64,000 nt of DNA from Patescibacteria group bacterium (GTDB taxonomy: Bacteria > Patescibacteriota > Patescibacteriia > Veblenbacterales > UBA10138). The DNA lies in the NCBI GenBank assembly GCA_041648575.1, contig JBAZOT010000005.1, positions 17,161 through 81,160 of the forward strand, given 5' to 3'. The notes below the pieces were generated by a model. That model had not been told where the DNA came from and did not search any database. It saw only the letters and a list, made by a program, of their open reading frames with translations. Below are positions 39,142-60,534 of the stretch, one piece after another (the stretch's first letter is position 1; every line of letters starts with the position of its first letter). A program made the translations under genes and the position numbers.

Positions 39142-39323
39142 CCCTCCTTCATCCAATTGATATTGGGACTACGGCGGGCAGGACGAGGATTTAAGATATT
39201 TGGAAAAATATACAAGTTGTGGTGTGAGGTATTGGTGAATATCGATTTTCTTGACAGGTAGATTAAAATAAGGCATAAGTTATTTGAAGATTAAAAAATT
39301 AGAAGTTGTTACTTTTTGTTTTT

Positions 39324-39395
39324 GCCCCTGTAGTTCAATGGATAGAACCGCGGACTTCTAAGCCGCTGATAGAGGTTCAATTCCTCTCAGGGGCA
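39324..39395 (+). tRNA. tRNA-Arg (anticodon UCU), CCA not encoded
   Basis: Acceptor GCCCCTG/CAGGGGC, anticodon loop CTTCTAA, T-loop TTCAATT. There is one A:G mismatch at the base of the anticodon stem. Confidence 0.75.
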
Positions 39396-39422
39396 GGAAT
39401 AAAAAGTAAGGAATAATAAAAT

Positions 39423-41003: not shown

Positions 41004-42278
41004 ATGGCAAAAAGCAAGACTATAAAAACTGTTAAGCAGGCTAAAATTATTAAAGTTAAGGTAAAGAGAGCGCCGGTTATAAATAAGTTACAACAACAAG
41101 TAAAGAAAAATATAACTAGGATTGAGCCTCAAGTAGTAAAACAGCCAGCAGTTGTAGCAATGTCAAAAAATAAACCCAAATTATCTCATGTTACATTCTG
41201 GCAATATGTCACTTGGTTTTCAGGTTTGTTAGTAGTGATTATGTTGATCGGCACAATTATAGTAGTAAACAGGCCGGGTACCAAGGCTATTGGCATTAAT
41301 AATTTTAATCCATTAATTAATCAGACTAATCAGCAGGAACAAATACTGCCCAGTGCTTTTGTTTCCAGTTTAACCGGTGAAGGCGTGACTCAAGAAGTTG
41401 CCGAGCGCAGACCTCTGGCTGTAATGATTGAAAATTTTTATACAGTAAGACCGCAATCTGGATTGTCATTTGCCGATCTAGTATGGGAAGCGCCAACCGA
41501 GGGTGGCGTGACCAGATTTTTAGCAGTATTTCAAAAAGGATTGCCTTCTAGAATCGGACCAGTGCGCAGCGCGCGTTCGTATTTTATTGACTGGGCACGC
41601 GAATTAGAAGCTTTTTATGCTCATAGCGGTGGGTCGGACGACGCTTTAGATGAGCTAGCTAGGGGTGTTGAAAATTTACAAGATGTTAATGAGTTTTCAA
41701 ATGAGCAAGCATTTTGGCGCGACGACAGAGAAGCGAGGCCGCATAATTTATACACAGCAGCTGAATCATTTTACACTTATGCTGAAAATAGAAACTGGCG
41801 TACAATCAACGACCCTAGTCCTTGGCAATTTGTAAATTCAGATAATTTAACTAGTGTGCCACGGTTGATAATGGAACAGGCTAAGGAAATTTTGGTTCCT
41901 TATTTTCCGTTAGAATACGACGTGTTATGGAAATATCAAGTAGGCGACGGTGTTTATGAGCGATGGATGGATAACAAACCACATCAAGACAGAATTACTG
42001 GTGGAACACTGCAAGCTAAAAATGTTATTGTCATGTTCACTGATGTAGTACCAATTCCTCGCGATCCAAGATTAAGAGTTAATATTACCACTGTAGGCAG
42101 CGGGACAGCTTATTTATTTGTTAACGGCGTAGTTTATAAAGGTTTATGGCAAAAGAAAAGTTTAGAAAGTAGAACTGAATTTGTTGATGCTGGAGGAAAT
42201 TTTTTGCCTTTAAATCCTGGTGTTACTTGGATTTCGGTAGTGGATAAATCGTTAGAGCAGGAGCTTGAATATAAATAA
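41004..42278 (+). CDS. DUF3048 domain-containing membrane-anchored protein
   Basis: N-terminal transmembrane helix, then RPLAVMIENFYTVRPQSGLSFADLVWEAPTEGGVTRFLAVFQ, characteristic of DUF3048 (YerB-like). Confidence 0.55.
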   Translation: MAKSKTIKTVKQAKIIKVKVKRAPVINKLQQQVKKNITRIEPQVVKQPAVVAMSKNKPKLSHVTFWQYVTWFSGLLVVIMLIGTIIVVNRPGTKAIGINNFNPLINQTNQQEQILPSAFVSSLTGEGVTQEVAERRPLAVMIENFYTVRPQSGLSFADLVWEAPTEGGVTRFLAVFQKGLPSRIGPVRSARSYFIDWARELEAFYAHSGGSDDALDELARGVENLQDVNEFSNEQAFWRDDREARPHNLYTAAESFYTYAENRNWRTINDPSPWQFVNSDNLTSVPRLIMEQAKEILVPYFPLEYDVLWKYQVGDGVYERWMDNKPHQDRITGGTLQAKNVIVMFTDVVPIPRDPRLRVNITTVGSGTAYLFVNGVVYKGLWQKKSLESRTEFVDAGGNFLPLNPGVTWISVVDKSLEQELEYK

Positions 42279-42344
42279 TTTTTGTGTTAATATCATTTAG
42301 CTATAAATAGGAAAGGTTTTCTATTTATAATTTATAGTGGCTAT

Positions 42345-42419
42345 GGTGGGTGTAGCTCAATGGTAGAGCACCGCTCTGTGGCAGCGGCTACGAGGGTTCG
42401 ATTCCCTTCATCCACCCCA
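42345..42419 (+). tRNA. tRNA-His (anticodon GUG) with encoded G-1 and CCA
   Basis: Extra 5' G pairing with discriminator C73, acceptor GTGGGTG/CATCCAC, anticodon loop CTGTGGC, T-loop TTCGATT. Confidence 0.85.
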
Positions 42420-42550
42420 CCAAAATCACTCAGTGTTTACTGGGTGATTTTGTTATGCCCTAATGGGACATCAAAACTTTTTACTAAAATAAAAAAGGAG
42501 GTACCCGACATATGTCGAATACCTCCGTGTTACTTTTTGTAAACGAGCCT

Positions 42551-43750
42551 TTAATCCAGTTCCCCGACTTGATTTCTTTCCATAAATAAACGGAATTTGT
42601 CATAGTCTGGACCTTCTACTTTTTCGTCCCACGAGTAGGCCAGTGCTGCCATACACTTAACCTCAAGGAGGGCTCCTGTCGTACTACTACCAGAGATAGC
42701 GTTGCCATCTCCTTCTTTGACTGATACCGCCTTGGCACCTGATAGGTACGGGCTGTCGACGCTACCGTCCATCATTGGGCTACCCAATACCACAGGATAG
42801 TGGCGCTGATATAACTCCCACAAACAATTGATGTGGGTTCTCTCTGCTTCAATGATGCCTTCATCACGGACGTTGCCTGCGCCATAGGTAATCATTAGCA
42901 TGGCGCTACAAGTTGGATCATCAGCATCGTGAAGGATTGATTCCGATGGGGTAGCCGGGCTAATTTTTACAACCTTTATACCCTCTCGAAAGTGTGGCTG
43001 GTAGATCAAGCGTGATGAGGTCGCGATTGGGTTACGACGTGGTGCACGCGGGTAGAGCACGAGGTGATCATCATAGTGCCCGACTTGGTCCTTTTCAGGG
43101 CAGGAAAATGCCTGACGACGTTTGTCTTTGACCTTATGGATCTTACTACCGTCCATAAGCTCATCGTTGAACATCAACAATGGACCACTCAAATCGCTCG
43201 CCGCAGCCGTAATGGCAAAATACAGATTGTTGGTAGCGTCATCGCCAAGCTCAACCATTGGGATCTGTGCTCCAGTACCTACGATTGGTTTGCCGATGTT
43301 GGGGAACATGAAGCGCGTAGCTGCCAACATATGGGCCATGGTATCAGTACCGCCGCAAACGACAAAGCCAGTCGCAAAATCGTGAAGTAGACGTATAGCG
43401 TTGCCAATACTGACCCAGTGGACCCAACGACCATTCGTTGAGTCAATAGCTTTGCTGTATACAGGCACCCAAACAACCTGCACCTGGTTAGCGAGGCCTT
43501 TAACTGAGAGTGGTTCGAGCAGCCGCTCGGCATCGTCGGTCGGACCATAGACCTTCTTGTTGAAATCCTCTTTCAGCCTGACCATGCCGATAGTGCCACC
43601 GTAGTAGAGAATAAACACCACGGGGACATTCTTCTTAAGTTGGGCAATATGATCAAGGACCTGGCTGGGAAGTTCTTCCGTACTGGAGTATGGAATAACT
43701 GCGGCAGCCTGCTTCTGATGTCTCTCATTTTTTGAATAAGTGTTGTTCAT
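42551..43750 (-). CDS. L-asparaginase/glutaminase family protein (GC-rich, likely horizontally acquired)
   Basis: Asparaginase motifs YYGGTIGM (TGGTIAG-like) and CGGTDTMAH (HGTDTM). The gene is about 50% GC against about 33% background. Confidence 0.7.
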   Translation of the reverse strand: MNNTYSKNERHQKQAAAVIPYSSTEELPSQVLDHIAQLKKNVPVVFILYYGGTIGMVRLKEDFNKKVYGPTDDAERLLEPLSVKGLANQVQVVWVPVYSKAIDSTNGRWVHWVSIGNAIRLLHDFATGFVVCGGTDTMAHMLAATRFMFPNIGKPIVGTGAQIPMVELGDDATNNLYFAITAAASDLSGPLLMFNDELMDGSKIHKVKDKRRQAFSCPEKDQVGHYDDHLVLYPRAPRRNPIATSSRLIYQPHFREGIKVVKISPATPSESILHDADDPTCSAMLMITYGAGNVRDEGIIEAERTHINCLWELYQRHYPVVLGSPMMDGSVDSPYLSGAKAVSVKEGDGNAISGSSTTGALLEVKCMAALAYSWDEKVEGPDYDKFRLFMERNQVGELD

Positions 43751-44149
43751 TGGTAACCTTCTTTCTGAAATTGTTGTATGGTTTGTGGTTTACACTTGAA
43801 CGCCAAAAGACGGCCAAATGTGAACCACAAACATTTGTTAAAGAACAAGAAATAGTAGCTTATTTTAGTAATCTTGTCAAGTCTAAAACTTGGTCATTTT
43901 TAGCCTAAAGGCGTTTGTGAATAAAGATAGCTCATTAAGAACTTGGTGCCAATCCACTGTTCTGAAACTGGCCACCAATCCACCCCATCAAGAAGTCTCT
44001 CGTTCAAACGAGGGATTTTTTGTTTAAGTTAGCAAAGAACTACGGTTTGCAACTTTTGAACCAAAACACACTACCCCTAATGGGATGGAAAACTTTGTAA
44101 TAAAAACAGGAGTAGACGACTTATGTCTACTCACAGAATCAAAATAATA

Positions 44150-44983
44150 CTAGTCCACTCTACGAATATTAATCTTAGTAGAAAATGTATGTTGGGGCTT
44201 TATCAGTTCGGGATCATTTATTAGCCCACCAGCATCCCTCATAACTGGTTCTATACAAATGAAATTCTTACCTGGCTGCGTCCACACCCAAATTCTTTTA
44301 TATTCTTGTGAAACATCTAGAGCTAAGGTACCAAGCTTAGGTATCATTACCCGCAATACAACACTTGGGTCCTTTAATTTAGGATTGTCTATCTTGGCTG
44401 TTTGTCCTTGAGACCATGATGAAAAACTATTTTCTACTACTTCACCACCGGGAAAATCAAAACGGATATTCTTTTTTTCATTATCTGGTACTGGAAAATA
44501 TGGATGCAGGCCTTCTGAAACTGGCATATCTTTATCATGCTCCAAATTTGTTGTCTCCCTTAATAAAGTCATAGAACCATCTTCTTCAAGGATGGCCTTA
44601 GTGCGAGATAAAAAATTGAAAGGGTAAACCTCCTTAGTTGCTTCGTCCGATGATAATTCTTCAATAAACTCATTAGCAGGACTATCTTTAACTATCCAAT
44701 TTTCAGAATTACGAGCAAATCCATGCTGCCGCAAAAGGAATGGCCCTTCCTTCAAGGGTCCTGCGTTCGGAAAAAGTATCGGTATTCCACCTTTAACATT
44801 AACTTCACTATCATTAAAAGTATTTAGATCAAAATATAAAACCTCCTCTCCTTTTAATTTTAGGGAAGTAATGATTCCTCCCCTTTGGGGAGAGAATGAA
44901 ACCTCATTATTATTTGGACCAATTCTTTTTTCGATTGGAAATCTAAATAATTCATTTTTACTTAGCCGTTCAAATTCTTCCAT
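44150..44983 (-). CDS. aldose 1-epimerase family protein (hexose-6-phosphate mutarotase-like)
   Basis: GGIPILFPNAGP motif and an overall YeaD-like pattern. Confidence 0.65.
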   Translation of the reverse strand: MEEFERLSKNELFRFPIEKRIGPNNNEVSFSPQRGGIITSLKLKGEEVLYFDLNTFNDSEVNVKGGIPILFPNAGPLKEGPFLLRQHGFARNSENWIVKDSPANEFIEELSSDEATKEVYPFNFLSRTKAILEEDGSMTLLRETTNLEHDKDMPVSEGLHPYFPVPDNEKKNIRFDFPGGEVVENSFSSWSQGQTAKIDNPKLKDPSVVLRVMIPKLGTLALDVSQEYKRIWVWTQPGKNFICIEPVMRDAGGLINDPELIKPQHTFSTKINIRRVD

Positions 44984-45166
44984 AAATTATATGCATAGTA
45001 CTTATTAACTGAGCTTATTATACCTTTTTAATTGAGCAATCTCAAATGAATTTATACGTTCGGATTTACTATATTAGTTTTCCATCTCCTCTCGTTCAGC
45101 TATCCTAAAGATAGGAAGATGAGGATCGGTTTCCACTTAGTTCCGTTTTTTTGATATCATTAAGTT

Positions 45167-46150
45167 ATGGAGAAAGTTTATAGTAGTAAATCAGAAGCAA
45201 TTTTGGCTCGGGATTACATAGAGCAAAGATTAAAAGAGATTACTAATTTGGAAGTTAAACTAGACAAAAAACTGAGTGATTTTATCTTTGACACTATAAT
45301 GTCAAAGAAGTTTAGGAAATATTCTATAAACCCACTGGCCAACGATAAGGCTCGTAATGCAATTGAAATAAATATAAAAAACAATGAGCCAATTAAATTG
45401 GCAATTCCTTTTGGTACTTATAAATTATGGAGGTTAGGGGAAAGTCCAGAGCCTGATTGGGCAGAATTATTTGTTATGATTTATTATACTTACTGGTTGA
45501 GGCCAATTACTTGCGTTTACCAGCCAGGGGTTTGGTTTGATTTTTGTGGAGATGATGCGATATTAGAAATGATGAACAATATTCCAGAAGTAGATACTGA
45601 AAAGTACAAGTTAACTTTTAGATCCATAATTAAATTCATTCAACCTTATTTGCCAAGTAATTTTAAGTTCACTCTTAGTCCAGTAGGTGAAAGGTATAGT
45701 TCAAAAGACGAATTCCTGGCGGACTTAACGGGCAAAATAGAAGACTTAGAGAAAAAGGGTGTAGACCCATTAACTGAAAGACAAATTGAAATGATGAGAT
45801 TTAATATTAGACCCAAAGACGGTGTAGAAATAGATTTTCAAAAAAATCATCTGATTCATGATGCATATATGAATGTGAGTAAAAGAAGGCCCTACCACAA
45901 AGCCCTTGATAAGATTCTTGTTTCAGCAACTCCTTTTGGTGACAGGACTAGTCTGCCGGTAGGTACGACTAAAACCTCTGTGGTTAAATTTCAGACAGGA
46001 GCAGGGGTGTTGATTAAAAGAGGAGATAGTTTCATTGAAAGTGTACATTCGCCGTCACAATTAGAAGTGTGTAAATTTGACTGGGCAGAAGTTTCGATTG
46101 ATGGTTTGGTTGGAAAAAATTTCAAAATGATTAGAGTTGTATCTGAATAA
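45167..46150 (+). CDS. hypothetical protein
   Basis: 327-aa ORF with no motif I can assign. Confidence 0.4.
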   Translation: MEKVYSSKSEAILARDYIEQRLKEITNLEVKLDKKLSDFIFDTIMSKKFRKYSINPLANDKARNAIEINIKNNEPIKLAIPFGTYKLWRLGESPEPDWAELFVMIYYTYWLRPITCVYQPGVWFDFCGDDAILEMMNNIPEVDTEKYKLTFRSIIKFIQPYLPSNFKFTLSPVGERYSSKDEFLADLTGKIEDLEKKGVDPLTERQIEMMRFNIRPKDGVEIDFQKNHLIHDAYMNVSKRRPYHKALDKILVSATPFGDRTSLPVGTTKTSVVKFQTGAGVLIKRGDSFIESVHSPSQLEVCKFDWAEVSIDGLVGKNFKMIRVVSE

Positions 46151-46388
46151 TTGTGTTTACATTCTTCGTTATACGACCCCGCTAGGAAGTCGCTCGCCTG
46201 AACGAGAGATTTTGCATTATTAAAATCAAGAGATTATAATTTAATTACTGAAGTTTTTAAGTATTAATTAAACTATTTATGGAAAAAGCTAAATTATTTT
46301 ATTTTAGTGTATTAAGTTCTTTTGCCACATTTGTTTATGTGATATTGGTGGCTTGGATTATGATCAATGGTGATAAATATTTGGTCAG

Positions 46389-46613
46389 ATGAACACTTTA
46401 TTAGGCCCAGTGGCTTTTTTATTGTTATTTGTAGTGTCGGCAACTATTGTTGGGTTATTAGTTTTGGGCAAGCCAGTAACATTATTTTTGGAAGGTTTTA
46501 AAAAAGAGGCAGTAAGATTATTGTTTTATACAGTAATTTGTTTAATTGTAATTACAGCTTTAGCGTTAGTAGCCATGATGATAGTTAATACTGTGGCAAT
46601 TAAAAATATATGA
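46389..46613 (+). CDS. small hypothetical membrane protein
   Basis: 74 aa with two transmembrane helices, overlapping the downstream protease gene by 4 nt. Confidence 0.3.
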   Translation: MNTLLGPVAFLLLFVVSATIVGLLVLGKPVTLFLEGFKKEAVRLLFYTVICLIVITALALVAMMIVNTVAIKNI

Positions 46614-47551
46614 AAAAGTTTAATTTATTAATCATTTTGTTAGTTATAACTGGTCTAAATGTAGCAGCTTGGGTTGGCTTTACTAGTATTTATCAACATA
46701 AATTTAATCAGGACATTAATCAGTTAAAAAATGAACTGGTTCAGTTACAGCAAAAAGTTGCTGGTTATGATTTAGAACAGCAAAAATTAGTTCAGGCTAC
46801 CCAAGAAGCAGCTAACAGGGAAGCAGTTAAGCAAAGGTCTCAAGACGAATTATTACAGGCAGCTGTGGCTAAAGTAACGCCAGCAGTGGTTTCTATAGTA
46901 ATTTCTAAAGATGTGCCCAAGTTGGAAATTGTTTATGAAAATCCGTTTGGCAATGATCCGTTTTTCAAGGATTTTAATTTTCAAGTGCCCGTTTACCGAC
47001 AAAAAGGAACACTGCATGAAAAAGTCGGTGCCGGGACTGGATTCTTAGTTACTAAAGACGGTTACATTATTACTAATAAGCATGTAGTTGCTGATACAGC
47101 GGCGGATTATACTGTATTGTTGTCTGATGGTAGTCAAAAACCCGCACAGGTTATTTATAAAGATTCAGTGCATGATTTGGCTGTAGTCAAAATTGAAGGT
47201 AGTGGATTTACGACAGTAGAATTAGGTAATTCTGATAGTTTGAATTTGGGGCAAACTGTGTTTGCGGTTGGTAATGCTTTGGGTGAATATAGTAATTCAG
47301 TATCAGTGGGGATTATTTCAGGCTTAGACAGAACCATTCAAGCTTCAGGTTCAGCTGGAGTTGATCAGTTGAAGGGTGTGATTCAAACTGATGCAGCAAT
47401 TAATCCGGGAAATTCTGGCGGGCCACTTTTAAATTTAGACGGCAAGGCTGTTGGTGTGAATGTAGCTACAGTGGTGGGATCAAATAATATTAGTTTTTCT
47501 ATACCAATTAAACTGGTTAAGGAAATTATCAACTCGGTAATTAATAAATAA
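46610..47551 (+). CDS. trypsin-like serine protease (S1C/HtrA-like, no PDZ)
   Basis: Membrane anchor plus coiled coil, then the catalytic triad context (TNKHVV, D, and TDAAINPGNSGGPLLN). Confidence 0.75.
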   Translation: MKKFNLLIILLVITGLNVAAWVGFTSIYQHKFNQDINQLKNELVQLQQKVAGYDLEQQKLVQATQEAANREAVKQRSQDELLQAAVAKVTPAVVSIVISKDVPKLEIVYENPFGNDPFFKDFNFQVPVYRQKGTLHEKVGAGTGFLVTKDGYIITNKHVVADTAADYTVLLSDGSQKPAQVIYKDSVHDLAVVKIEGSGFTTVELGNSDSLNLGQTVFAVGNALGEYSNSVSVGIISGLDRTIQASGSAGVDQLKGVIQTDAAINPGNSGGPLLNLDGKAVGVNVATVVGSNNISFSIPIKLVKEIINSVINK

Positions 47552-47757
47552 CTATTTAGCAATTAATAATTATTTAATCTAAAACATCCCTGAAATCTTC
47601 GGGGTGTTTTATTTTTGAATTTTTTAAATAAAATTAAAGAGGAAAATTTTAAATAAAAAAGGTTGACAAAAGGCTATTTTTATGCTAAAATTAGTGTATA
47701 AATGCAATAAAATCAATATAATTTAACAAATAATTTTAACATTAAATACAAAAATAT

Positions 47758-50700
47758 ATGAAAAGATTTATTCAGGTTTTTAATAGCCTAGTTGGTATTA
47801 TGGCTATAGCTTTTTTATTTTCACAGTTTGCTAATGCAACTGTGGAAGTTATTATTCATGATTTGGAGCAAGCAAGTAAAAAAGCAGCGGTTACATTATC
47901 AACTAATAATATTGATCAAGGAAAAGTTCTTGGTGTTACAAACGAAGTGGTGTTAGCAGCAACCACCCCGATACCTTGTGCTGATTGTGATACGCCTACA
48001 TATTACACTTTGACTGTTGCCAAAACTGGTTCGGGTACAGTTACCAGCTCGCCTGTTGAAATTAATTGCGGCAGTACCTGTTCAGCTATTTATACTTCGG
48101 GTGTAGCCGTAACACTTACAGCTACACCAGCGTCAGGTTTTGTTTTTAGCGGTTGGGGCGGGGTATGTAGCGGGACTGGTTCATGTACACTAACGATGAA
48201 TAGTAATAAGAACGTGACGGCGACGTTTGGTACGGCGACCAAATTGGTCACGCTCAACATTGCTCGAATTACCTCGCCAGCATATGGGACAGTTACCAGC
48301 TCGCCTGCTGGTATAAACTGTGGTGATATTTGTGGCGCGGTTTTTCCTGTAGGTACTGCCGTTACGCTAAAAGCATCTCCCGGACAGGGGTATATATTTA
48401 CGGGTTGGCGCGGTTGTCAGCCAGAAGGCCTTCAGCTCACCTGCACTGTAACATTGAACAGCGACACAACGGTGTCAGCCAATTTTGCTACTAACACCTT
48501 TTCTATAGATGTTTATAAAACAGGCACGGGCTCGGGTACCATAGTTAGTTCACCAGTTGGTATTAATTGCGGATCGGATTGTAATTCAGCAACTTTTAAA
48601 GGCACACCCGGTTCTTCGGTCACTTTTACAGCCACCGCAGTAGCTGGTTCAAAATTTTTAGGTTGGGGCGGGGCATGTATAGGTAACCAAACTAGTTGTA
48701 CGGTTATCTTAGCAGATCGTCCTACTAATCATTATCCTCGAGTGATGGCTAATTTTATACCCACCGATGTTCCGTTGGCTGATTTAATTATTACATCAGT
48801 AGAGATAAAGGGAATCCCTAAAGTTGGCGATTTTGGAATTAATGGCTGGGTTACTATTAAAAATCAAGGTAGTGGTACGGCAAAATTTCAAGTTCCAGTG
48901 GGCACAGAACACTATTTTGCTCCAAGTATATTAAATGTTTCAGTATTTAAATCGCAATTGGCGTCGGATTATGTTATGGTAGCCGGTTCTGGACCAGCCG
49001 CAGTCAGCACGGGTGACGGAACTATTATTGCGCCAGGCGAATCAAAAGAATATGATTTTTTCACCATGACTGATTCCAGATTATATACCAGGGATGATTT
49101 TCTAGGCACGGCTGGCGAAAAAACGTTATATTTTATGGTTGATATAGAAAATCTAGTAAGCGAATCTGATATTATTAATAATATTTACACAAAAAAATTT
49201 ACTGTTAGTGCGACTACATCATCTATCAGTTTAATAACTCCAAAAAGTGGAGAGGTGTGGCGCATAGGGAGTACGTATACAATTCAGTGGCAGAATAGTG
49301 ATGTCGCGCCAACTACTCGGAGCGTCCAACTGTATACTAATCCAGTTGGATCAGCCACGGTTTGCTTAATAGCGAATAGCGTACCCGATAGAGGTTCATA
49401 TACATGGACTATACCAACGACCATAGATAGAAATTGTTGGGGTACACATGTTTTGACCGTACTGCGCTTGGACGGCTCAAATATCAAAGGCCAAAGCGAG
49501 GTCTTTACCATAAGCAGTACCCCCAGCTCGATGTTTAAGATCGCCGAAATATCAACTTTCGCGCCATCTTATGTGCCAGGAGCCAATGTTAACTTTAAGG
49601 TGCGTGGCATTGAGCCCGATGGCACAGCTACGGCATATGAAGAGGGGTTCAGGGTAAGTGGCCAGATTTATTTTGGTAGTGAGCCATATACACCCGCAAG
49701 TCCACAAACTGTATCGTACGAGCCAACCGGCTGGTGGCAATTAACTCTTATTGCGCCAAGCAGCAATGGTAGCTACAAAATGCGTGTCGTGTTAAGCTGC
49801 TCGTTTGATACCGGTGTGGCCTGTGCTGAAAAGTATGGTACAGGTGGGCCGCAAGTGGAGCAAATGGTGCCGTTTATGGTTGGTACAACCTCGTCGGGTA
49901 TTAATATAATAACCCCGAATGGCGGGGAGCGGTGGGTGGTTGATAAAACATATACTATTGGTTGGAGTACTAAGGGTGTGCCAACATCGTATTACAACTC
50001 GTACCCGTTAATTGAGTTGGTTAGCGGTGATAGTAGCGATAGCGCAGTACTCACAAATTGGCGTTCTCAAGATAAATTTGCTAACAGTGATGATAGTCGT
50101 TTTGGGAGAACAAGTTTTACTGTTTCCAAAACGCTAGCGGGTAAAAATTTTTATGTGCGAGTGAGCGTGGGTGATAACACTGGTGGTTTAAGTTTCCGCG
50201 GTACGACAGCTGGTCAAGTAACAGTAGTTACTAGTCCTCCTTGGCGGGTGTGCGCCGGCTCTCCGGAAATGGTTCGTCGTTCAGCTCTCGGTACAGATGA
50301 ATTTGGACGTTTGGGGCTAGATATTTCTTCTCATCCAGAAATTTTGCGTTATCGCATTCAATGGTTCTCTGGTGGTTGGTCAGATTGGTACATACCAGGT
50401 GTAGATGATGTTGATTGGAAGACAGATGACATTACTAAACCGCATCGTGTTTGGGCATATTTTGGCGATCATAATCATGAGTTTGAGAAGTGCAGTACTA
50501 CAGTAGGGAATAAACCGGATTTCATAGTAGAAGATATAAATGTTGTTAATCGTTCAACAAGCGGTGAAAAGGTATTTTCGGTGAGATATAAAAATATTGG
50601 TAGCATAGCATTAGCCCAAATGCTGACTGTTGAATTAGTAGATACGGATACTGGCGATATATACTCGCAATCAATTGGTGGTGGCGATATACCATCTGGA

Positions 50701-52872
50701 TTTTCATATGATCTAGAGATGGCGCAAGCTATTCGTGAGCAGACCCGTGCTCGTTTTTACGTAAAGGCAAAAGTCGATTCTACGAATAAGTTTGTCGAAT
50801 CAAATGAAAATAATAATGAATTAACAAAGACTATATCTTTTACTCCTGTTACTAGTGGCAAAATTATTGATGATTCTAAAGCTGATAATGATCCAGTATT
50901 ATTGCGACGGTCTAACGGTGATTTGATAGTAGTTTATACTAGCGAACAAGCTGGAGCGAACATTGGTGCTGCTTATTCCAAAATATCTAAGGATAATGGC
51001 AAAACTTGGCAAGGTCCATATAAAATAGTTGATAGTTGGGGTAAGATAGATTTAATTGAAAATATTTCCAAACAATTAGTGGTGATAGCCACTGATTTAA
51101 CGCCCGGTAGAATTGGCGGCGGTTCAGTAACTTTAGTTTCTATTGATGGAGTAACCTGGACCAACCAGCGCCCAGTAACAGTAACGTCCTTAAATGATGG
51201 TTATGGCTCCATTGAGCAGTCGAGTGATGGTAGTTATTATGTTACTTTTAATGTTTCAAGCGGAGTTTGGCAGTCTTATATAACAAAATCTACAGATTTA
51301 ATTACCTGGGAAGCGGCTTGGCCAGTATCCGTTGATGGTGCACCAATTTATGGCTCATCAATAATGCAAGCGTCTGATGGGACATATTATTTAGTTGGTT
51401 ATACTTCTGTATTAGCTGATGAATCAACTATAACTCCAGCATTGGTGGCTTTACGTTCAACCGATGTCAAAAATTGGGTGAAAGATAATTCGGTAAATAT
51501 TTTAGCACACTCTACTATGGGACAGCATATGATCGAGATGCAAGGAATTCCCACATTATTTTATGCATTTGATCCGGCTTTTGGACAAGCCAGATTATAT
51601 TATGCATCTAAAAAAAGCAGTTGGAATTCACCACAGGTGGCAGCACATGGCCCATTTCCTTTTGGTGTAAGTTCTGTGGTTATGTCCGATGGTAGCGTGG
51701 CAATAGCTTATATGAAAGAAGTTAATGGACAGCGGGATATTTTCTTCCAAAATATAGGAGGATTGATAGTTGGTGGTACACCTGATCTTGTTGTTAGCAG
51801 TATTTCATTAGAACCCTCAGTTCCGGTTGTGGGTCAGGAAGTTATTATTAAAGCTGTGGTTAAAAATATTGGTACAGTAGATGCATTCATTCTTAATTCC
51901 CAACCCTTATCAGGACCAACTGCCAACTTAAAAATTAGTGGTTTTGGATATAATTATGTTGAAGGAACAGGTGGAGCAATTGGCACAAACGATAATCCCC
52001 CCATTAAACCAGGAAGCACGGCAACATATATTTTTGGAAAGCATTCTACTATAAAATTATCCAATATTGGGCCTTATAGTATCAGTGTGACAGCTGATGG
52101 TGGCTCAAGTGACGCTGGTGGCATTGGTGTGATTGACGAATCAAATGAAGGAAATAATACTTTAGTTAAGACAATTATTGTGGATAATAAGAAAGTTGAT
52201 TTAAAATCTATATCAGCGGAAGAGTCTGTGCAGCAAAGAATTCAACAATTAGAATATAAAGTTTCTGAACTGGAGCGACAATTAGTAGAAAACGAAAAGC
52301 AACTTGCTCAAAAAATTGATCAGCAATTAACCAACCGTGTAGCTGGAAAAATTCTTTTGCAGGTAGAAGGAAACGGTGAAGCTTGGTATGTAGATAAAGA
52401 TACTCAGAAAAAGTTTTATCTAAAAGATGGCAATACTGCTTATACTGCCCTGCAAGCTTTTGGCTTGGGTATTTCTAATGAGAATCTAGCCAAAATTCCA
52501 GTATCTACTTCAGAACAAGTGGTAGCAAAAGACAGCGATGGCGATGGCTTGGATGATCAATTTGAAACAGCTATTGGTACTAATCCAATGAATAAGGACA
52601 CAGATAATGATGGATATGATGATGGCATGGAAATATCTAGTGGTTATTCGCCATTGGGACCAGGTAAAACAACAGTTGATGCAAGTTTAGTTAAAAGATT
52701 AGAAGGAAAAATAATTTTGGCAGTTAATAAGCACGGCGAAGCGTTTTATATTAGTAACGGAATAGCGCATTACTTAAAAGATGGCGCCTCGGCTTATCAA
52801 ATAATGCGTAATCAATCATTGGGTATTACTAATAACGATCTACGTAAAATTCAGGTGGGTGAATTTGAATAA
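47758..52872 (+). CDS. giant secreted/surface protein (1704 aa): divergent InlB B-repeat x4, CARDB-like, BNR/sialidase-like propeller, coiled coil, Ca-binding TSP3-like repeats and a duplicated C-terminal module
   Basis: Signal peptide; four repeats of GSGTVTSSPxxINCGSxC...GWxGxC (divergent InlB B-repeat); CARDB-like DLIITSVEIKG / DLVVSSISLEPSVPVVGQEV; Asp-box SKDNGKTW; DxDxDG repeats; C-terminal tandem roughly 40-aa motifs. Confidence 0.8.
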   Translation: MKRFIQVFNSLVGIMAIAFLFSQFANATVEVIIHDLEQASKKAAVTLSTNNIDQGKVLGVTNEVVLAATTPIPCADCDTPTYYTLTVAKTGSGTVTSSPVEINCGSTCSAIYTSGVAVTLTATPASGFVFSGWGGVCSGTGSCTLTMNSNKNVTATFGTATKLVTLNIARITSPAYGTVTSSPAGINCGDICGAVFPVGTAVTLKASPGQGYIFTGWRGCQPEGLQLTCTVTLNSDTTVSANFATNTFSIDVYKTGTGSGTIVSSPVGINCGSDCNSATFKGTPGSSVTFTATAVAGSKFLGWGGACIGNQTSCTVILADRPTNHYPRVMANFIPTDVPLADLIITSVEIKGIPKVGDFGINGWVTIKNQGSGTAKFQVPVGTEHYFAPSILNVSVFKSQLASDYVMVAGSGPAAVSTGDGTIIAPGESKEYDFFTMTDSRLYTRDDFLGTAGEKTLYFMVDIENLVSESDIINNIYTKKFTVSATTSSISLITPKSGEVWRIGSTYTIQWQNSDVAPTTRSVQLYTNPVGSATVCLIANSVPDRGSYTWTIPTTIDRNCWGTHVLTVLRLDGSNIKGQSEVFTISSTPSSMFKIAEISTFAPSYVPGANVNFKVRGIEPDGTATAYEEGFRVSGQIYFGSEPYTPASPQTVSYEPTGWWQLTLIAPSSNGSYKMRVVLSCSFDTGVACAEKYGTGGPQVEQMVPFMVGTTSSGINIITPNGGERWVVDKTYTIGWSTKGVPTSYYNSYPLIELVSGDSSDSAVLTNWRSQDKFANSDDSRFGRTSFTVSKTLAGKNFYVRVSVGDNTGGLSFRGTTAGQVTVVTSPPWRVCAGSPEMVRRSALGTDEFGRLGLDISSHPEILRYRIQWFSGGWSDWYIPGVDDVDWKTDDITKPHRVWAYFGDHNHEFEKCSTTVGNKPDFIVEDINVVNRSTSGEKVFSVRYKNIGSIALAQMLTVELVDTDTGDIYSQSIGGGDIPSGFSYDLEMAQAIREQTRARFYVKAKVDSTNKFVESNENNNELTKTISFTPVTSGKIIDDSKADNDPVLLRRSNGDLIVVYTSEQAGANIGAAYSKISKDNGKTWQGPYKIVDSWGKIDLIENISKQLVVIATDLTPGRIGGGSVTLVSIDGVTWTNQRPVTVTSLNDGYGSIEQSSDGSYYVTFNVSSGVWQSYITKSTDLITWEAAWPVSVDGAPIYGSSIMQASDGTYYLVGYTSVLADESTITPALVALRSTDVKNWVKDNSVNILAHSTMGQHMIEMQGIPTLFYAFDPAFGQARLYYASKKSSWNSPQVAAHGPFPFGVSSVVMSDGSVAIAYMKEVNGQRDIFFQNIGGLIVGGTPDLVVSSISLEPSVPVVGQEVIIKAVVKNIGTVDAFILNSQPLSGPTANLKISGFGYNYVEGTGGAIGTNDNPPIKPGSTATYIFGKHSTIKLSNIGPYSISVTADGGSSDAGGIGVIDESNEGNNTLVKTIIVDNKKVDLKSISAEESVQQRIQQLEYKVSELERQLVENEKQLAQKIDQQLTNRVAGKILLQVEGNGEAWYVDKDTQKKFYLKDGNTAYTALQAFGLGISNENLAKIPVSTSEQVVAKDSDGDGLDDQFETAIGTNPMNKDTDNDGYDDGMEISSGYSPLGPGKTTVDASLVKRLEGKIILAVNKHGEAFYISNGIAHYLKDGASAYQIMRNQSLGITNNDLRKIQVGEFE

Positions 52873-52893
52873 CACCTGATTAAAATTAAATAT

Positions 52894-55800
52894 ATGCATA
52901 AAAAACTTTTAATTATCCTAATATTTGGCGTTGTTTTGATTGGCGGTCTTTGGTTTGGTAATAATCCAGATTTTTGGTTTGCTTATAAAATAATTTTCCA
53001 ACCAAACGCACGGGTGGCGGGGGTGCAATTAGTGGTGGATACATCTGCAATTTCTATAATTAATCCAGCTAATGGTGTTAATTTTTTAGTTGGCACTGTA
53101 CCGGTTGTTATGGATATTACTAACACAACAAGCGTGAGAGAGTTTTTATGGAATTGGAATAATCAAAGCTATACCATATACAACAATTCTTTGGTGGCCA
53201 TGTTTAATTTTGACAACATTACCGCCTTAGGCGAAAGTTTATCATCTACTACCGTAACCGATGCTTCTTTGTATGCTAACAAAGGAACTTGTACTAATTT
53301 AGGTACGGGGTGCCCTTGGGCAACTGGGAAATATGGCCAGGCGATGAATTTTACAGGCACAACAGGAAATATTTTAATTAACACTAGCTCTAGTCTTAAT
53401 GCCTTGAGTAGACATACAGTAGAATTGTGGGTTAACTCTAGAAGCAATTCTCTTCTCTCTACTATATTTAATAAAATGGGAGAAGGTGAAGGATTTAGAA
53501 TTACTAAGCTTTCTGATGGAAGAATTGCTTACGATCTCGCCAATGGGCGGGGGTTAGGAGCCACTCAACTTATTTCCAATCAAGCAATTCCTATAAATAT
53601 CTGGACCCATATTGTAGTTGCCTATGATGGAACTGTACAACGTATGTATATTAATGGCGCTCTTCAATCTGGTTCTATTAACACCACAGCTTTTGTTTCC
53701 AATACCTTTAGTCCACTTGAGATCGGTTATGCTAGCTGTTGCGGAATTCTTAATGGATACAACGGGTTATTGGATGAAGTAAAAGTATGGAATAGGGCAC
53801 TAAGCGTAGCTGAAATTCAACAAGCCTACGCCTCCGCCCTTAGAAAATATGATACTAATAAATGGAGTTTTGAAAGTATACAAACAAATCTTTCCAGTGG
53901 TACTTATACACTCTCAGCTTCTGTGACAGATACTTTGGGTAATACAAACTCATCTAGTATACAAACTATTACAGTAAATTCTTCACTGCCTGCTGATACT
54001 CAATCCCCCTCTACGCCAACAGGATTAACCATAACAACCATATCCTCATCTCAACTTAATCTTGCTTGGGCTGCTGCTACTGATAATGTTGGTGTGGCAG
54101 GATATCGTATTTACCGAGGCGGCAGTCAAATAGGAACTTCAAATACTGCCTCGTATTCCAACACTGGCCTTACTGCCGCTACCACCTATAGCTATACTGT
54201 GTCTGCTTATGATGCGGCTGGAAATATATCTTCTCAATCTGCCTCTGTTTCTGGAACGACGCAATCAGTTTTGTTATCGGGAGCGATAATCGTGGATCAT
54301 GCTTCTGTTGATCGATTCAGCCAGATTCCTGCTTCAGTAATACAATCTGCTCGTAATTTAAGATCTCTGCTTAGGCACGCATCTGTTGGCGGAAATATTA
54401 ATGATGGGTTAAATGATTTATATAATCAAAATACGATTTATAATAGGAATCAATGGTCATTCCAGAATAGGGGTAATGATGGCGGGGTTGCAAAAATTAA
54501 CGATTTTATAAGCCAAGTTCAAATTCAAAGTGGAAATTATGATATTTTTGCAATGAAATTCTGTTTTATTGATATAGATGTGTCTACGCTTTATGCACAA
54601 TATAGAGACGCGATGTTGCAATTAGAAAGGAATTATCCTAATAAAAAGTTTGTGTGGTGGACACAGCCCTTGAGAGATGGTGGTCCGCCAGCTCAGGTAA
54701 TTCAGGCTTTTAACAATAACGTAAGAAGTTATGCGGCACAGAATAACAAGATACTTTATGATATAGCTGCTATTGAATCTCATCGCGCAGACGGAACTTT
54801 GTGTACTTCAAATGGTTATGAAGTGCCATGTACTGAATGGTCGCGTATTCCTGATGGTGTTAGTGATGGCAGTCACTTAGGAGTAGCTGGTCGTCAGAGA
54901 GCCGCAAAAGCACATTGGTATTTAATGGCTCGACTTACAGGGTGGAGCCCAGATTCGCTTTCTATCGACACCCAATCTCCTTCTACTCCCACGGGACTTA
55001 CTGTAACTCCCATCTCCTCGTCTCAACTCAATCTCTCTTGGACTGCTTCTACTGATAGTGTAGGTGTAGTTGGGTACCGTATTTATCGAAGTGGCACTCA
55101 AATAGGAATTTCAAATACTACCTCGTATTCCAATACTGGCCTTACTGCCGTTACCACCTACAGTTATGCTGTTTCTGCTTACGATGCCGCAGGAAATATT
55201 TCTTCCCAATCCGCCGCCGTTTCTGGAACAACACGGGTGGTTGCAAGCGATATTATAGCCCCAGTTGTTTCTGTTATTGCTCCTGTAAGCGGATTTACGG
55301 CCTCTGGAACAATTACATTATCTGCTTCCGCTACTGATAACGTAGGTGTGGCAAGTGTTCAATTCCGCGTAGCTGGCTTAAATGTTGGTTCTGAAGATAC
55401 TGTCTCGCCTTATTCTATTTCTTGGAATTCTGCTTCGATGGTTAATGGTTCTCATCTAATAACCGCTGTGGCACGGGATGCAGCAGGGAATTCTGCTGTT
55501 TCTCTTTCTGTTTCAATTATAGTTTCAAACACAATTGTCGCAGTAAATTTTAAAAACGTGAATCATACATATCCCCGTATCGGATTATTGCAATGGGGCG
55601 GAGGAAATGTGGATTGGTTTTGTCGGTATGATTTAGTGATGCTTCCAGAGGTAGAAACATATAAAGCACGGCAGATGCAGACGCGATGCCCGTCTACCTA
55701 TATGATCGCAACGAATGACTGGACACAAGGAGGTATTTTTCAGCCTCCGGGCCACGCGGATGTATTACCTGATGTATGGTATCAAAAACAATCTACTGGT

Positions 55801-58800
55801 GTACGCGTGCCTACCGGGACTAGGGGAATGATGAATTTTACTAAGTACACGCCGAAATACACGGGTTATATTAGTAGTCCAGCGTTTGTCGATTTTGAAA
55901 TGCCAACCAGTATTTATATTGATAATAAAACTTATACCGAGGCAATTTCCGATGCATTTTTGGATTATGTGGATTGGAGCGCATGGGATGGAATCAACAG
56001 TGATGGATCATGGCCATTCCCTTATAACAGTGGGGATATAGATCTGAATGGGAACGGTATCAACGATTGGCCCGAAAATGGTTGTGCAGTTCCATGCACA
56101 AGTGGTAGTACTGGTTTTGAGCAGGCGTATTTAGCGATTCAGAAAGAATGGATTATTGGCAACGAAGCGCTGGTTCAGTCCATTCGCGACAAAATGCAAC
56201 AAAAATTGGGTGGGCAGAAAATAATCACATACTGGACGATTAGTAATTCTGATCCAGCGCATGGTTCATTAATGAATGCAAGTCTTGTAAATGGTGTAGG
56301 ATGGGAAATGGCGTCCTATATGCCAGGGACCAATTGGAATAATTTTATTCGGAATAACGCTGCATTCAATACTTTAAGCAGGAGTCCGAAAATTAACTGG
56401 GTGAATAGTACAATTTTGGGAGATGAGGCAAACGCTCCTGTCGGAAATCCCAAGAATTATTTTAGATTTATGAGATATATGCTCACTCAGACACTACGAG
56501 GAGATAATTATTTCATGCAGGAAGACGGAGGGCGTTTTCTGGATCGTGTTGGATGGAACCCGTATAACGAACATTACTGGCAGAATTGGTATGACGAATT
56601 TGACACAAATCTCGGTTATCCCACAGGATCGGCACAGAGTCTTGGCAACGGTACATGGATCCGGTTCTTTGATAATGGTGTTTCAATAACGAACCCCACT
56701 ACTGCCACACAGACCGTAACGGACACAAATCTTCGGACACTTGCCGGATACAGCGGGCCCTACTATCGGTTCAGAGGAAATCAGGATCCCACCTGGAATA
56801 ATGGTCAATTATTTAGCTCGGTTACTTTGATTTCTAGTGCGGCCGCAGGAAGCGTTTCTCCGGTAGGTGACGGAATCTTGTTGTTCCGAACGCCCACAAC
56901 TGTTGTTTCTGATGTGATTATTGATAATGCATATACAGGGACTTCTCCGGGATCTCCAACTGCCGTTATGACTGGATTTTCATGGGATGAAGCAGCTAGC
57001 GTCAACTATAAGCATCCATCTTATTATGTTGGTTGGAGAACAGACGGGGATTCCATAACCCATAAACAGCATTATGCTTCCGCGGGTAGTGGTTCAGCGA
57101 CTGCAGTATTTCGTCCCACAATTAATGTACCGGGGCAATACCGTGTGTATGAATGGCACGGGTGGTATGGAGTCAATCAAACAAACATGGAAGCCACCAA
57201 TGTTCCTGCCTCGATTGTGCATTCTGGAGGAACTGCCAATCTGGCTATTAATCAACGCGTAAACCCTGGTCAATGGAATTTGCTCGGAACATATTCTTTT
57301 AATAACACCCACGCTTCTGTAACAATTACAAACAATGCCAATGGCTATGTTTTGGCGGATGCATTTAAATTTGTATACGCTGGTTCAACTAATAGTTCTG
57401 ATACCACCCCACCAACAATTTCTATCGCCAGTCCTGTAGCCAATCAATTTTTTACAACTAATTCAGCAGCTGTTTCAGGCACTGCGTTTGACAATACATC
57501 AGTTTCTTTAGTCCGAGTGCGTGTTAATGGAGGAACTTGGCAAACTGCTTCTGGAACAGCATCTTGGAACGTTACTCTGGCTCTATCTTCAGGTAGTAAC
57601 ATAATTGAAGCGCAAGCTATTGATGGTTCAACTCTTAATTCAGCCATACAGAGCGTAAACGTGATTTACAATGTGACATCATCACCAGTTGATACCACTC
57701 TACCAATCATATTTATTACAGCACCAACATCAAACCAAATATTTAGTACTTCAACTATTACAGTTTCTGGTACAGCCTCAGATAATATGGCAGTTTCATC
57801 TGTACGAGTTAGAGTGAATGGATCGGCCTGGCAAACTGCCACTGGCACAACCTCTTGGCATACTACTTTAACTTTATCTTCAGGTAGCAACATTATAGAA
57901 CTGCAAGCTATTGATAGTTCTGAATTAATATCAACAATTATCAGCCGGACAGTTATATACCAAATACTCGATACTGTTTCGCCAGAAGTTTCTATTACTG
58001 AACCTTTGACTGATTCTATAATTTCTGGCTCAAATGTAACTATATCAGCAACCGCTACTGATAATGTAGGTGTGGTTGGCGTTCAGTTTCAACTTAATGG
58101 TACTAATTTAGGAACTGAATTAGCAGTTAATCCTTATACTATAAATTGGGATACAACTGGTGCTATTGATAAAACATATACATTAATAGCAGTAGCCAGA
58201 GATGCTGCAGGTAATCAAACGGTATCTTCCGCAATTAGTTTTATAGTAAAAAATATTATACCAGTACGCCCTTTATTAGAAGACGAAATTCTACCAATAA
58301 TTATTATTTATTCACCTAAAACTGGCTCTATCGTGTCTAATATTATTACTCTGTTTGCTAAAGCGTTCGATAATGTTGGTGTAGCTGATGTTCAATTTAA
58401 ATTAAATGGTGTTGATATTGGAAATAAAATTACTACTAGCCCGTATACTATCAAATGGGACACAACTCAAAGTACTAATGGTCAGTATCCTATTACTGCT
58501 GTAGCCAGTGATGCTGTTGGAAATAAAGCCACTTCTACATCTGTAATAGTGGTAGTTAATAATATACCAATCAAAACAACCGGCGGTGGAGGTGGAAGTA
58601 TTACAGTTGATTCAAAGTCTAATATTTTTATTCCTGCGCCAGCTACTCAAAAAAATCCTACTTTTTTTGCTACTCCTGTTATTCCCGCAACATCAATAGC
58701 TGTTGTGGCGCAAGAAAAATTGGTTAGCAAGGCTATTGATACTAAACTCACCAATCGTCTTAAAGGGCGTATTTTGCTTCAAGTTGAAAATCATGGCTAT

Positions 58801-59292: not shown

Positions 59293-59505
59293 CACCTGAT
59301 TTAAAACAAAAAAACAAAACTGTTCCGACTAATTGGAGCAGTTTTGTTATAATTAGGACATAGGCGTTTAGCCTACTCTGCGTCATTGCGAGGATCCGCC
59401 AGTTGGCGGAGACGAAGCAATCTTAATAAAACACCAGTACCAACAAGAGATTGCCTCGCTGAAGCTCGCAATGACACTAAACGTGTAAATTCTAATAATA
59501 CTAAT

Positions 59506-60123
59506 ATGTATGGATTTAATAAAAGAGAATTGGCGATTTTTAGAAAATTGACTTCTCCGGTCAAAATTCAGGATTATTTAGAAACAATTCCTATAAATTT
59601 TGAAAAAAAAGGTGAAACTTGTATGTCGCCACGGCTAGTGTTGAGGGAATATAAAGCTCATTGTATAGAAGGCGCTATGCTGGCAGCTGTGGCCTTGAGA
59701 TTTTTAGGATATAAACCATTGGTTTTGGATTTAACAGTTTCTGTCCAAGATGATGATCACGTGATTACTGTTTTTAAACGAAATGGTTTATGGGGTGCAA
59801 TTAGTAAAATTAATCATTATGGTTTAAGATATCGTGATCCGGTATTTAGAGATATACGGGAGTTAGTAATGTCTTATTTTAATGAATATTTTATTGAAGA
59901 CGGTAGAAAAATCTTACGCAGTTATTCTTTGCCAGTTGATTTGTCACGTTTTGATAAGAGGGGCTGGATGACGAGTGAGAAAGATGTGTGGTATATTGTA
60001 GGGTATCTGGACCAAGTGAGACATTATCAGGTAGCGACTAAGACGGTTATTAAAAAATTACGATCGGCAGATAAATTAGAAATTAAGGCGAGTTCTTTAG
60101 TGCAGTGGCCGCCAAAAAAATAA
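59506..60123 (+). CDS. transglutaminase-like (papain-fold) domain protein
   Basis: AHCIEGAMLAAVALRFLGYKPLVL matches the transglutaminase-core Cys motif, followed by DDDHV (His) and downstream Asp. The ORF track starts at 59386, but that N-terminus lies inside a hairpin-rich leader, so the ATG at 59506 is preferred. Confidence 0.4.
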   Translation: MYGFNKRELAIFRKLTSPVKIQDYLETIPINFEKKGETCMSPRLVLREYKAHCIEGAMLAAVALRFLGYKPLVLDLTVSVQDDDHVITVFKRNGLWGAISKINHYGLRYRDPVFRDIRELVMSYFNEYFIEDGRKILRSYSLPVDLSRFDKRGWMTSEKDVWYIVGYLDQVRHYQVATKTVIKKLRSADKLEIKASSLVQWPPKK

Positions 60124-60126
60124 ATT

Positions 60127-60534
60127 ATGAACCATACACTTAACACTAAAATTGCGCCGTTTAAAGTAAGAATGTTTTATTTCGCCTTAGCTTTGCTTTC
60201 AATTATTGCTTACCGCAGCATAATTGTTCTTAATAATTTTAGCGGATTTTGGGTGTCGTTTGCTTGGTATTTAGGCACCATTACTGTAACTATATATTAT
60301 ATTCACAGATATCAAATATCTAAAAAACGTTTAGCGATTATTAAACAATATAAATTAGATGAAAAGGTGGAGTTACTAAGCGCTTTGGGTGTTCATGATA
60401 AAGAGGCACTGCATTATTTATTAGAATCATTAGAATCTTCAACCGAAAGGTGGAATTATTTATTTACATTTTCTACAACAATTCTAGCTTTAATTGCTGG
60501 TATTATTATTGATATTATTAATCATTTAAATTAA
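60127..60534 (+). CDS. hypothetical membrane protein
   Basis: 135 aa with three transmembrane helices. Confidence 0.35.
   Translation: MNHTLNTKIAPFKVRMFYFALALLSIIAYRSIIVLNNFSGFWVSFAWYLGTITVTIYYIHRYQISKKRLAIIKQYKLDEKVELLSALGVHDKEALHYLLESLESSTERWNYLFTFSTTILALIAGIIIDIINHLN

Follow-up and report, generated by a model that had tools for sequence, protein, structure and literature searches.

Integrase-less modules stacked at tRNA-His in a Patescibacteria genome, the newest carrying an asparaginase-family gene

How could a single gene of foreign composition come to lie directly behind a tRNA 3′ end, followed in turn by a copy of that end and with no integrase nearby? This question is raised by a 64-kb stretch of DNA from a Patescibacteria group bacterium (64,000 nucleotides (nt); GenBank assembly GCA_041648575.1, contig JBAZOT010000005.1, positions 17,161 to 81,160; here called the window and numbered from its first letter), in which an asparaginase-family gene is the only long open reading frame (ORF) between tRNA-His and the next gene. 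A preliminary description made from the letters alone had read the gene and its surroundings as a decayed or minimal integrative islet, and its positions for the gene, the two repeat copies and the tRNA all hold (Table 1). The integrase-less islet in a tRNA-His array is real, and to that extent the description stands; it is not the isolated 1.6-kb feature that had been described, since the array runs at least to position 46154. The asparaginase module is the newest of several integrase-less modules stacked at tRNA-His, and in our judgement it is probably an acquired cassette in an accretion array, which would have entered by a Campbell-type insertion.

A compositional break next to an intact tRNA-His gene

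The tRNA-His gene is intact. Both G-1, at 42345, and the CCA end are encoded, as read from the sequence, and the asparaginase module starts at 42420, the first base past the tRNA, which bears out the placement of the gene at the tRNA 3′ end. An Rfam scan of 42200–46500 returned nothing besides this tRNA. The GC content of the asparaginase gene is 0.493, compared with 0.370 ± 0.033 for the 43 other ORFs of at least 120 aa in the window, which served as the reference set for composition. Its GC content at third codon positions (GC3) is 0.515 against 0.290 ± 0.031 in the same set (maximum 0.374; z = +7.2), and by synonymous-codon likelihood the gene is the strongest outlier of the window (z = −6.0). 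The claim that the gene is foreign in GC also survives a windowed calculation, in which the highest 1-kb peak of the window is the asparaginase gene, at 0.512, and the next peak reaches 0.476. At a scale of 300–500 nt, parts of the giant surface-protein genes match its total GC and have normal GC3; the compositional break at the asparaginase gene is thus real and located in the third codon positions.

The tRNA-His slot in syntenic relatives

The neighbouring DUF3048 gene (41004–42278) led to five syntenic relatives, with protein identities from 73% to 51%. Four of them (L025, L026, L027 and L047) have a backbone of PNPase, NYN, S15, Xer-like, tRNA-Arg, hydrolase, CutA1, DUF3048 and tRNA-His in common with the window, and the fifth (L045) shares this backbone from the hydrolase onward; tRNA-His follows the DUF3048 gene in all five. 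The slot behind the tRNA is empty in L026, where some 200 nt separate tRNA-His from the 72-aa/trypsin genes that start at 46389 in the window, and in L045, where the 135-aa and Zip genes (60127–61281 in the window) come directly after the tRNA. It is filled by two unrelated membrane ORFs in L025, by a deaminase and M20 peptidases in L027, and by one HAD/aldolase gene in L047. The asparaginase gene is absent from the slot in 5/5 of these relatives, as the preliminary description had anticipated, and none of the filled slots contains an integrase. The empty site that had also been anticipated, with tRNA-His directly followed by the epimerase gene, was not found; the nearest homologs of the epimerase lie in other contexts, and the epimerase gene itself is within the variable slot.

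A comparison of L045 with L047 brings out the insertion most sharply. Their tRNA-His genes are identical and the flanks are 73–77% identical; homology ends with the final tRNA base (L045 9353, L047 9363) and restarts after 60 nt in L045 and after 1,510 nt in L047. The L047 insert, 1.45 kb with a single gene and without an integrase, ends in a remnant, ...TCACCCCA / ...GTTCGTTTAATCACCCCA, which is followed by a hairpin corresponding to the trailer of L045. Relative to L045, L047 shows a clean single-gene insertion of the same architecture as the asparaginase module. The insertion break at the last base of the tRNA is found likewise in the window, relative to the L026 flank.

There are signs that tRNA-His is itself replaced over time, perhaps as a result of the repeated insertions. 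It is only 64% identical between the window (42346–42419) and L047 (9290–9363), and its acceptor and T stems differ across the clade. The tRNA-Arg(TCT) gene 3 kb away is 97% identical between the same two loci (39323–39396 and 6665–6738, respectively).

A displaced terminator and repeated arms

The core repeat ATCCACCCCA occurs exactly twice in the 64 kb, and the match between the two copies extends to 14 nt with one mismatch. That the second copy marks the far junction of the module, as had been proposed, is upheld by what follows it. This is U1, an orphan terminator, since no plus-strand gene that it could terminate lies in the asparaginase module. Positions 43980–44029, which take in CCACCCCA, the hairpin and the T-run, match L047 9356–9405 at 45 of 50 nt (90%), and the match to the L047 trailer starts at the same base after CCACCCCA. 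Identity between the window and L047 is only 63% for the DUF3048 gene, 74% for the Xer-like gene and 78% for the 135-aa gene. A trailer better conserved than its own tRNA argues that the trailer travels with the inserted DNA; U1 is a displaced terminator, and its sequence identifies it as the probable former trailer of tRNA-His. A counterpart of the arm formed by V1 and the epimerase terminator follows the U unit in L047 as well. Throughout all fetched loci (~0.6 Mb, both strands), U1-like matches occur only at the boundaries of tRNA-His slots.

The core 10-mer gains weight from being part of a larger repeat, together with the U1 trailer and the V block. Each core copy is followed by a second shared block, composed of CCCTAATGGGA, an A/T-rich box and a hairpin terminator, which belongs to the asparaginase gene in one case and to the epimerase gene in the other. 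The similarity of the two flanks gives z = 9 against shuffles, the alignment covering 42458–42516 and 44075–44127, and CCCTAATGGGA is present in exact form just twice in the window (42458 and 44075). The best match of the V box (42458–42527) is 44041–44160 with a score of 57 against a background of 18.6 ± 4.1, the next scoring 37. When 43978–44022 was compared with the whole window on both strands, its best non-self matches were 46141–46260 and then the real tRNA end, 42361–42480, all on the plus strand. V0/V1 and the units U0, U1 and U2 are reciprocal best hits in the 64 kb, all in one orientation.

Three core-plus-terminator units stand in register, at 42410, 43978 and 46169, and the three U units delimit two modules, one with the asparaginase gene and one with the epimerase gene and ORF327. 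Positions 46155–46388 align with L026 10316–10543, which contains a real tRNA 3′ end and its flank (score 182). From this alignment, the ancestral flank of tRNA-His now lies 3.7 kb away from the tRNA.

The arms are conserved between genomes while their cargo differs. The tRNA end with U0 and V0 (42401–42483) is 77% identical to L027 12246–12325 (score 85; shuffles 25 ± 4), where this arm sits at the inner slot boundary, ahead of the M20 peptidase cargo. There are at least two arm types, each present in two genomes with different cargo. In both L025 and L027 the real gene is closely followed by pseudo-tRNA-His 3′ fragments (p ≤ 0.004). In L025, two such fragments are stacked after the gene at 11483–11660, the second of which resembles the tRNA-His allele of the window rather than that of L025, and an insertion of ~60 nt (11350–11409) separates the conserved leader GTGGCTATGG from the tRNA-His gene. 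It is unlikely that the tRNA–epimerase spacer simply underwent a recent tandem duplication, as the hairpins of U0 and U1 are unrelated and each has a closer counterpart in another genome.

Table 1. Features of the tRNA-His array and the nearest recombinase gene, in window coordinates.
Feature	Position	Strand	Remark
Xer-like tyrosine recombinase gene, 317 aa	38188–39141		beside tRNA-Arg; nearest recombinase to the slot
tRNA-His (GUG)	42346–42419	+	ARAGORN call; Rfam RF00005, 66 bits
Left core repeat ATCCACCCCA	42410–42419	+	acceptor stem 3′ strand, discriminator, CCA; attL-like
U0, hairpin and T-run	42421–42452	+	inverted repeat; now the tRNA-His terminator
V0, CCCTAATGGGA and A/T-rich box	42458–42489	+	tRNA-proximal arm of asparaginase module (arm 42420–42489)
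Asparaginase terminator	42497–42526	−	intrinsic; 13-bp stem then TTTTTTATTT
Asparaginase-family gene, 399 aa	42551–43750	−	PF00710, E = 1.8e-33
Asparaginase 5′ leader hairpin, long	43781–43832	−	minimum free energy z = −4.5
Asparaginase promoter-like site TTGACA-17-TACTAT	43852–43880	−	−35/−10 positions conserved in L002
Right core repeat ATCCACCCCA	43978–43987	+	far boundary of asparaginase module; attR-like
U1, orphan terminator	43989–44022	+	no plus-strand gene upstream; orientation as tRNA-His
V1, CCCTAATGGGA box	44075–44105	not assigned	arm of older module
Epimerase terminator	44110–44132	−	arm of older module, beside V1
Aldose-1-epimerase-like gene	44150–44983	−	PF01263; host-like composition
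ORF327	45167–46150	+	diverges from the epimerase gene; host-like composition
U2, decayed tRNA-His 3′ fragment and terminator hairpin	46155–46178 and 46185–46213	+	backbone homology with L026 restarts

How the module may have entered

An intact tRNA, a core copy at each end, a new trailer, a displaced old trailer and the least ameliorated module nearest to the tRNA together require a Campbell-type insertion of a circular molecule. We propose that the asparaginase unit was acquired horizontally from a higher-GC Patescibacteria lineage. A small circular, integrase-less module would have entered by a Campbell-type crossover in the last 10 nt of tRNA-His (ATCCACCCCA) and would have supplied the new tRNA trailer, U0–V0. 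The prior trailer (core and U1), with the older epimerase/ORF327 module behind it, would have been displaced downstream by 1.57 kb. In this clade the tRNA-His 3′ end would be a recurrent hotspot, at which modules stack in tandem with the newest beside the tRNA. Tyrosine-type integrases commonly have the 3′ end of a tRNA gene as their target. That the site is hit repeatedly and to the nucleotide, with only 7–10 nt of identity, speaks for a site-specific recombinase, which would typically be of the tyrosine type. As no filled slot encodes one, the enzyme would act in trans, from an element outside the window, or would have been lost. The circular intermediate is likewise presumed.

Several points weigh against this history. 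The 10-nt repeat taken alone is statistically marginal: the preliminary description gave a chance of 0.003, a figure that assumes a 10-mer chosen beforehand, and a fairer estimate is 0.047, the fraction of shuffles in which any stretch of 10 nt or longer out of the final 35 nt of the tRNA recurs exactly in the 5 kb that follow. The far and right tRNA-like remnants of the window, tested against 34-nt tRNA 3′ ends, are individually not significant, so that it is the trailers and the position that carry the argument. Hairpins of the U type double as ordinary terminators, and some of their similarity could reflect function. No integrase is found in or beside the asparaginase module. With the closest relative at only 73% identity in DUF3048, the state before the insertion, namely tRNA-His, U1 and epimerase, is reconstructed rather than observed. 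The predicted attB junction is ...GATTCCCTTCATCCACCCCA|TCAAGAAGTCTCTCG and the predicted circular attP is ...CTGGCCACCAATCCACCCCA|CCAAAATCACTCAGTG; a search of metagenome contigs for the predicted empty junction CCCTTCATCCACCCCATCAAGAAGTC gave no match, and no circular junction of the module was found. Nor were any convincing tRNA-end repeats present around the tRNA-adjacent asparaginase genes of three other genomes (L012, L015 and L016).

Two Logan contigs of the sample (run SRR8449827) meet at the far junction. The start of L001 is at 43985 and the end of L028 at 43956, with an overlap of exactly 30 nt (k−1), which indicates a branch of the de Bruijn graph in or beside the far core repeat (43956–43985). 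This branch could be a structural variant in the population; simple attB/attP junctions predict breaks 2 or 22 nt from the observed one.

The same geometry could also be produced without a site-specific recombinase, if a circular or tandem fragment that came from a related cell and carried a tRNA-His end with its trailer were inserted by a RecA-dependent or homology-facilitated route, the exchange taking place inside the conserved tRNA end and trailer. The lack of an integrase in every filled slot would fit, and so would the repeated arms, which are common to several genomes and extend well past the tRNA (z = 9 for the flanks), as would be expected after homeologous DNA had entered by a homologous Campbell insertion. 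However, exact identity at the junction amounts to only 10 nt, and to 7 nt in L047, and the usual minimum for RecA-mediated exchange is far above 7–10 nt. L047 and L045 part exactly at the last base of the tRNA, and insertions that return to the same few bases in several lineages are typical of site-specific recombination, so that we hold the RecA-type route to be unlikely. Could the 10-mer instead be a coincidence, the gene having arrived between genes by an illegitimate event and the hairpins being ordinary look-alike terminators? A probability of ~0.05 for the 10-mer alone and the tRNA-fragment tests of the window would allow it, but such an origin would have to accommodate a U1 that matches the trailer of a genuine tRNA-His elsewhere at 90% identity, from the same start base after CCACCCCA, that is an orphan in the orientation of the tRNA, and whose fellow units are reciprocal best hits across the 64 kb and all loci, besides a parallel insertion in L047. 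It is thus very improbable.

Hardly any credence is due to the remaining explanations, in which the gene is native, its GC reflecting amino-acid content or selection, or the segment is a chimera of the assembly. In 17/20 other genomes the GC content of the gene exceeds that of its flanks, and part of the excess could therefore be intrinsic; yet the excess is seen in GC3, beyond the maximum of all other ORFs, and not only in the first and second codon positions, and the gene is missing from the five syntenic relatives. A chimera might be suspected from the two Logan contigs that meet at the branch of 43956–43985. Against it, the tRNA-side junction is spanned by the independent contig L001, and on the far side this contig overlaps L028 by exactly k−1 (30 nt), the two being joined in an 85-kb contig of the metagenome-assembled genome (MAG). 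Integration of an acquired circular module by a site-specific recombinase remains the history that we prefer.

A further-reaching idea, which we regard as doubtful, is that tRNA-His docks a whole family of ~1.5-kb integrase-less single-gene cassettes with a conserved core/U/V arm, which pass from lineage to lineage and are stacked one after another by a trans-acting recombinase; the Xer-like enzyme, whose gene lies 3 kb upstream, might be the one. If true, this would amount to a tRNA-anchored, integron-like capture of genes in reduced symbiont genomes. The Xer-like gene is 80–87% identical and syntenic in L025, L026, L027 and L047; it is absent from the corresponding place in L045 and present beside the empty slot of L026. 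Situated 3.2 kb from the array, beyond five genes, it is a conserved core gene and encodes the sole recombinase near the hotspot.

The asparaginase gene and its signals

The encoded protein belongs to a divergent asparaginase subfamily that is related to the type I enzymes. Besides PF00710 (Table 1), PF17763 is matched weakly, at 21.7 bits and under its cutoff. TIGR00519 scores 107 bits with a cutoff of 260, and a further equivalog model scores 99 with a threshold of 376. The best match in the PDB is E. coli L-asparaginase I (8e-23), in which the GGTIGM and GTDTMA motifs are aligned (6NXC/2P2D). Residues T53, T135, D136 and K206 are invariant across 32 homologs. In the alignment they coincide with the residues that form the catalytic site of E. 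coli asparaginase I, and the enzyme of the window is probably active. As the scores lie under the curated type I thresholds, the substrate is only inferred, the presumed function being that of an L-asparaginase, which releases aspartate and ammonia.

With a promoter, a structured leader, a coding sequence and a terminator, the gene would form a self-contained transcription unit. The hairpin terminator that had been reported to close the gene is indeed there, on the minus strand; it is partly alignable to the terminator of the homolog in L002 and to the epimerase terminator. By alignment tally, the leader (43751–43849) is 95% identical to that of L002 whereas the coding sequence is ~83% identical. 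The long leader hairpin is kept in L008 with compensatory changes, G-C to A-U and A-U to G-C, and had no match in Rfam. It may serve to stabilise the mRNA, or have a regulatory role, and be carried along with the gene. The leader counterparts of 43751–43850 (minus strand) are L002 134–233 and L008 9415–9519, and a GTTCTTT box follows the −10 element in several homolog loci.

Homologs, donor and mobility of the gene

The preliminary description expected a donor outside the candidate phyla radiation (CPR), and this is rejected by the taxonomy of the homologs, which are overwhelmingly from Patescibacteria. The closest are 92%, 86% and 76% identical, and ~90 more exceed 43%; ordinary asparaginases reach only 27–30%. 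From 92% down to 45%, close homologs come from MAGs labelled as Patescibacteria, bar a few oddly binned contigs, and the labels are almost all Patescibacteria, Uhrbacteria, Moranbacteria, Kaiserbacteria and Paceibacterota. Neighbour joining places the protein of the window beside P0002 (the 92% homolog) and P0003 within a clade, and in those members of this nearest clade for which DNA was available the gene has a GC content of 0.42–0.62. The donor would be another Patescibacteria lineage of higher GC. Among metagenome contigs, no asparaginase relative with flanks was closer than 76%, and no viral carrier was found of the gene or of the 30-mer at the contig branch.

That the gene moves repeatedly as a single transcription unit follows from homology confined to the gene, together with GC3 that departs from the flanks in many genomes. 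The nucleotide homology with L002 (86% at the amino-acid level) covers only the part from the −35 box to the terminator, the flanks being unrelated and AT-rich. L005 and L006 (9995–11183 in each) are 83% identical in nucleotides, and homology is limited to the gene besides short repeats, in contexts that are unrelated. One of these two loci is binned as Methylobacter sp., which is either a mis-binning or a transfer beyond Patescibacteria, and L006 has several copies of a ~55-nt repeat. A tRNA gene lies within ~170 nt of the asparaginase homolog in 3/20 other genomes, where the rough expectation is ~3% per gene. These are tRNA-His in L012 (9769–9843), tRNA-Ile in L015 (11332–11406) and tRNA-Gln in L016 (1611–1683); in L012, where the neighbouring tRNA is again tRNA-His, the asparaginase gene is oppositely oriented.

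Older cargo and the wider variable region

The epimerase gene is, to judge from its distribution, itself slot cargo that would be older than the asparaginase gene. Neither it nor ORF327 has a counterpart in the slots of the five syntenic relatives, and the nearest epimerase homologs (69% and 60% identical) lie beside ftsZ or SIMPL genes and without tRNA-His. ORF327 had no match in Pfam, NCBIfam, PHROG or the PDB; the possibility that it is a hidden recombinase was considered and found no support in Pfam, PHROG or the PDB. In agreement with the preliminary description, no recombinase or integrase domain occurs within 42420–46154.

Beyond the array, the block 46389–60126, between tRNA-His and the 135-aa/Zip genes, is made up of a 74-aa gene, the gene of a trypsin-like protease, two genes for giant surface proteins of 1704 and 2132 aa, and an ORF of 205 aa. 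As the 135-aa/Zip genes directly follow the tRNA in L045, ~17.7 kb after tRNA-His of the window is variable across the clade. An exact 14-mer, ATCCGCCAGTTGGC, is found at 59394–59407, in an intergenic palindromic region after the giant genes, and at L047 10851–10864, in the hairpin at the right boundary of the insert (rough chance ~0.03). It may be the outermost and oldest remnant of a trailer, or a coincidence.

Significance and comparison with known systems

Patescibacteria (CPR) have very small genomes in which the gain of genes is little documented, and this locus offers a concrete route, whereby whole transcription units would move between CPR lineages and land at a nucleotide-precise tRNA-His hotspot without a recombinase of their own. 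The cargo is metabolic, including asparaginase, epimerase, HAD/aldolase, deaminase and peptidases, which suggests that the hotspot serves nutrient-scavenging adaptation. Arm identities of 90% and 77%, where neighbouring genes have 63–78%, provide a searchable signature for the mobile gene pool and for the missing recombinase. A literature search returned nothing specific to such a locus. The phenomenon is well known in biology at large, and the value of the present case lies in being a clean and well-bounded example in an understudied group.

As for the cargo protein, it shares with type I (AnsA-like) L-asparaginases the N-terminal domain, the GGT and GTDT threonine motifs and the Thr-Asp-Lys triad, its best solved relatives being asparaginase I of E. 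coli, Yersinia and Vibrio. It differs from them by its low identity to characterised enzymes (~27–30%), by a ~40-aa N-terminal extension and by belonging to an essentially Patescibacteria-specific family.

Three kinds of mobile or modular DNA resemble the array. Like the islands that tyrosine integrases target to the 3′ ends of tRNA genes, the module lies at the 3′ extreme of a tRNA whose end is restored, has a short repeat of that end at its far boundary and an atypical composition, is present or absent among relatives, and belongs to a stack with the newest module beside the tRNA. Unlike such islands, it has no integrase, excisionase or transfer gene, is only ~1.57 kb with one gene, and has a core of 10 nt. 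Integron cassette arrays also consist of serial single-gene modules with imperfect hairpin units of ~120–160 nt and variable cargo. The array here is anchored on a tRNA gene instead of an intI/attI platform, and the asparaginase module has its own promoter (conserved with L002), unlike typical cassettes; the attC boxes were not compared. The third kind are the cis-mobilizable elements (CIMEs) of streptococci, att-flanked remnants without an integrase that are mobilised by a related integrative element through accretion. The modules at tRNA-His are likewise flanked by att-like sequences, lack recombination genes, stand in tandem at one att site and have conserved arms that carry different cargo between genomes. 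No integrase-bearing partner occurs here in the window, in any fetched locus or in gene-carrying viral contigs, and mobilisation was not observed. In concept, CIMEs would nonetheless be the closest known counterpart, the asparaginase module being comparable to them as a tRNA-linked genomic islet in an accretion array.

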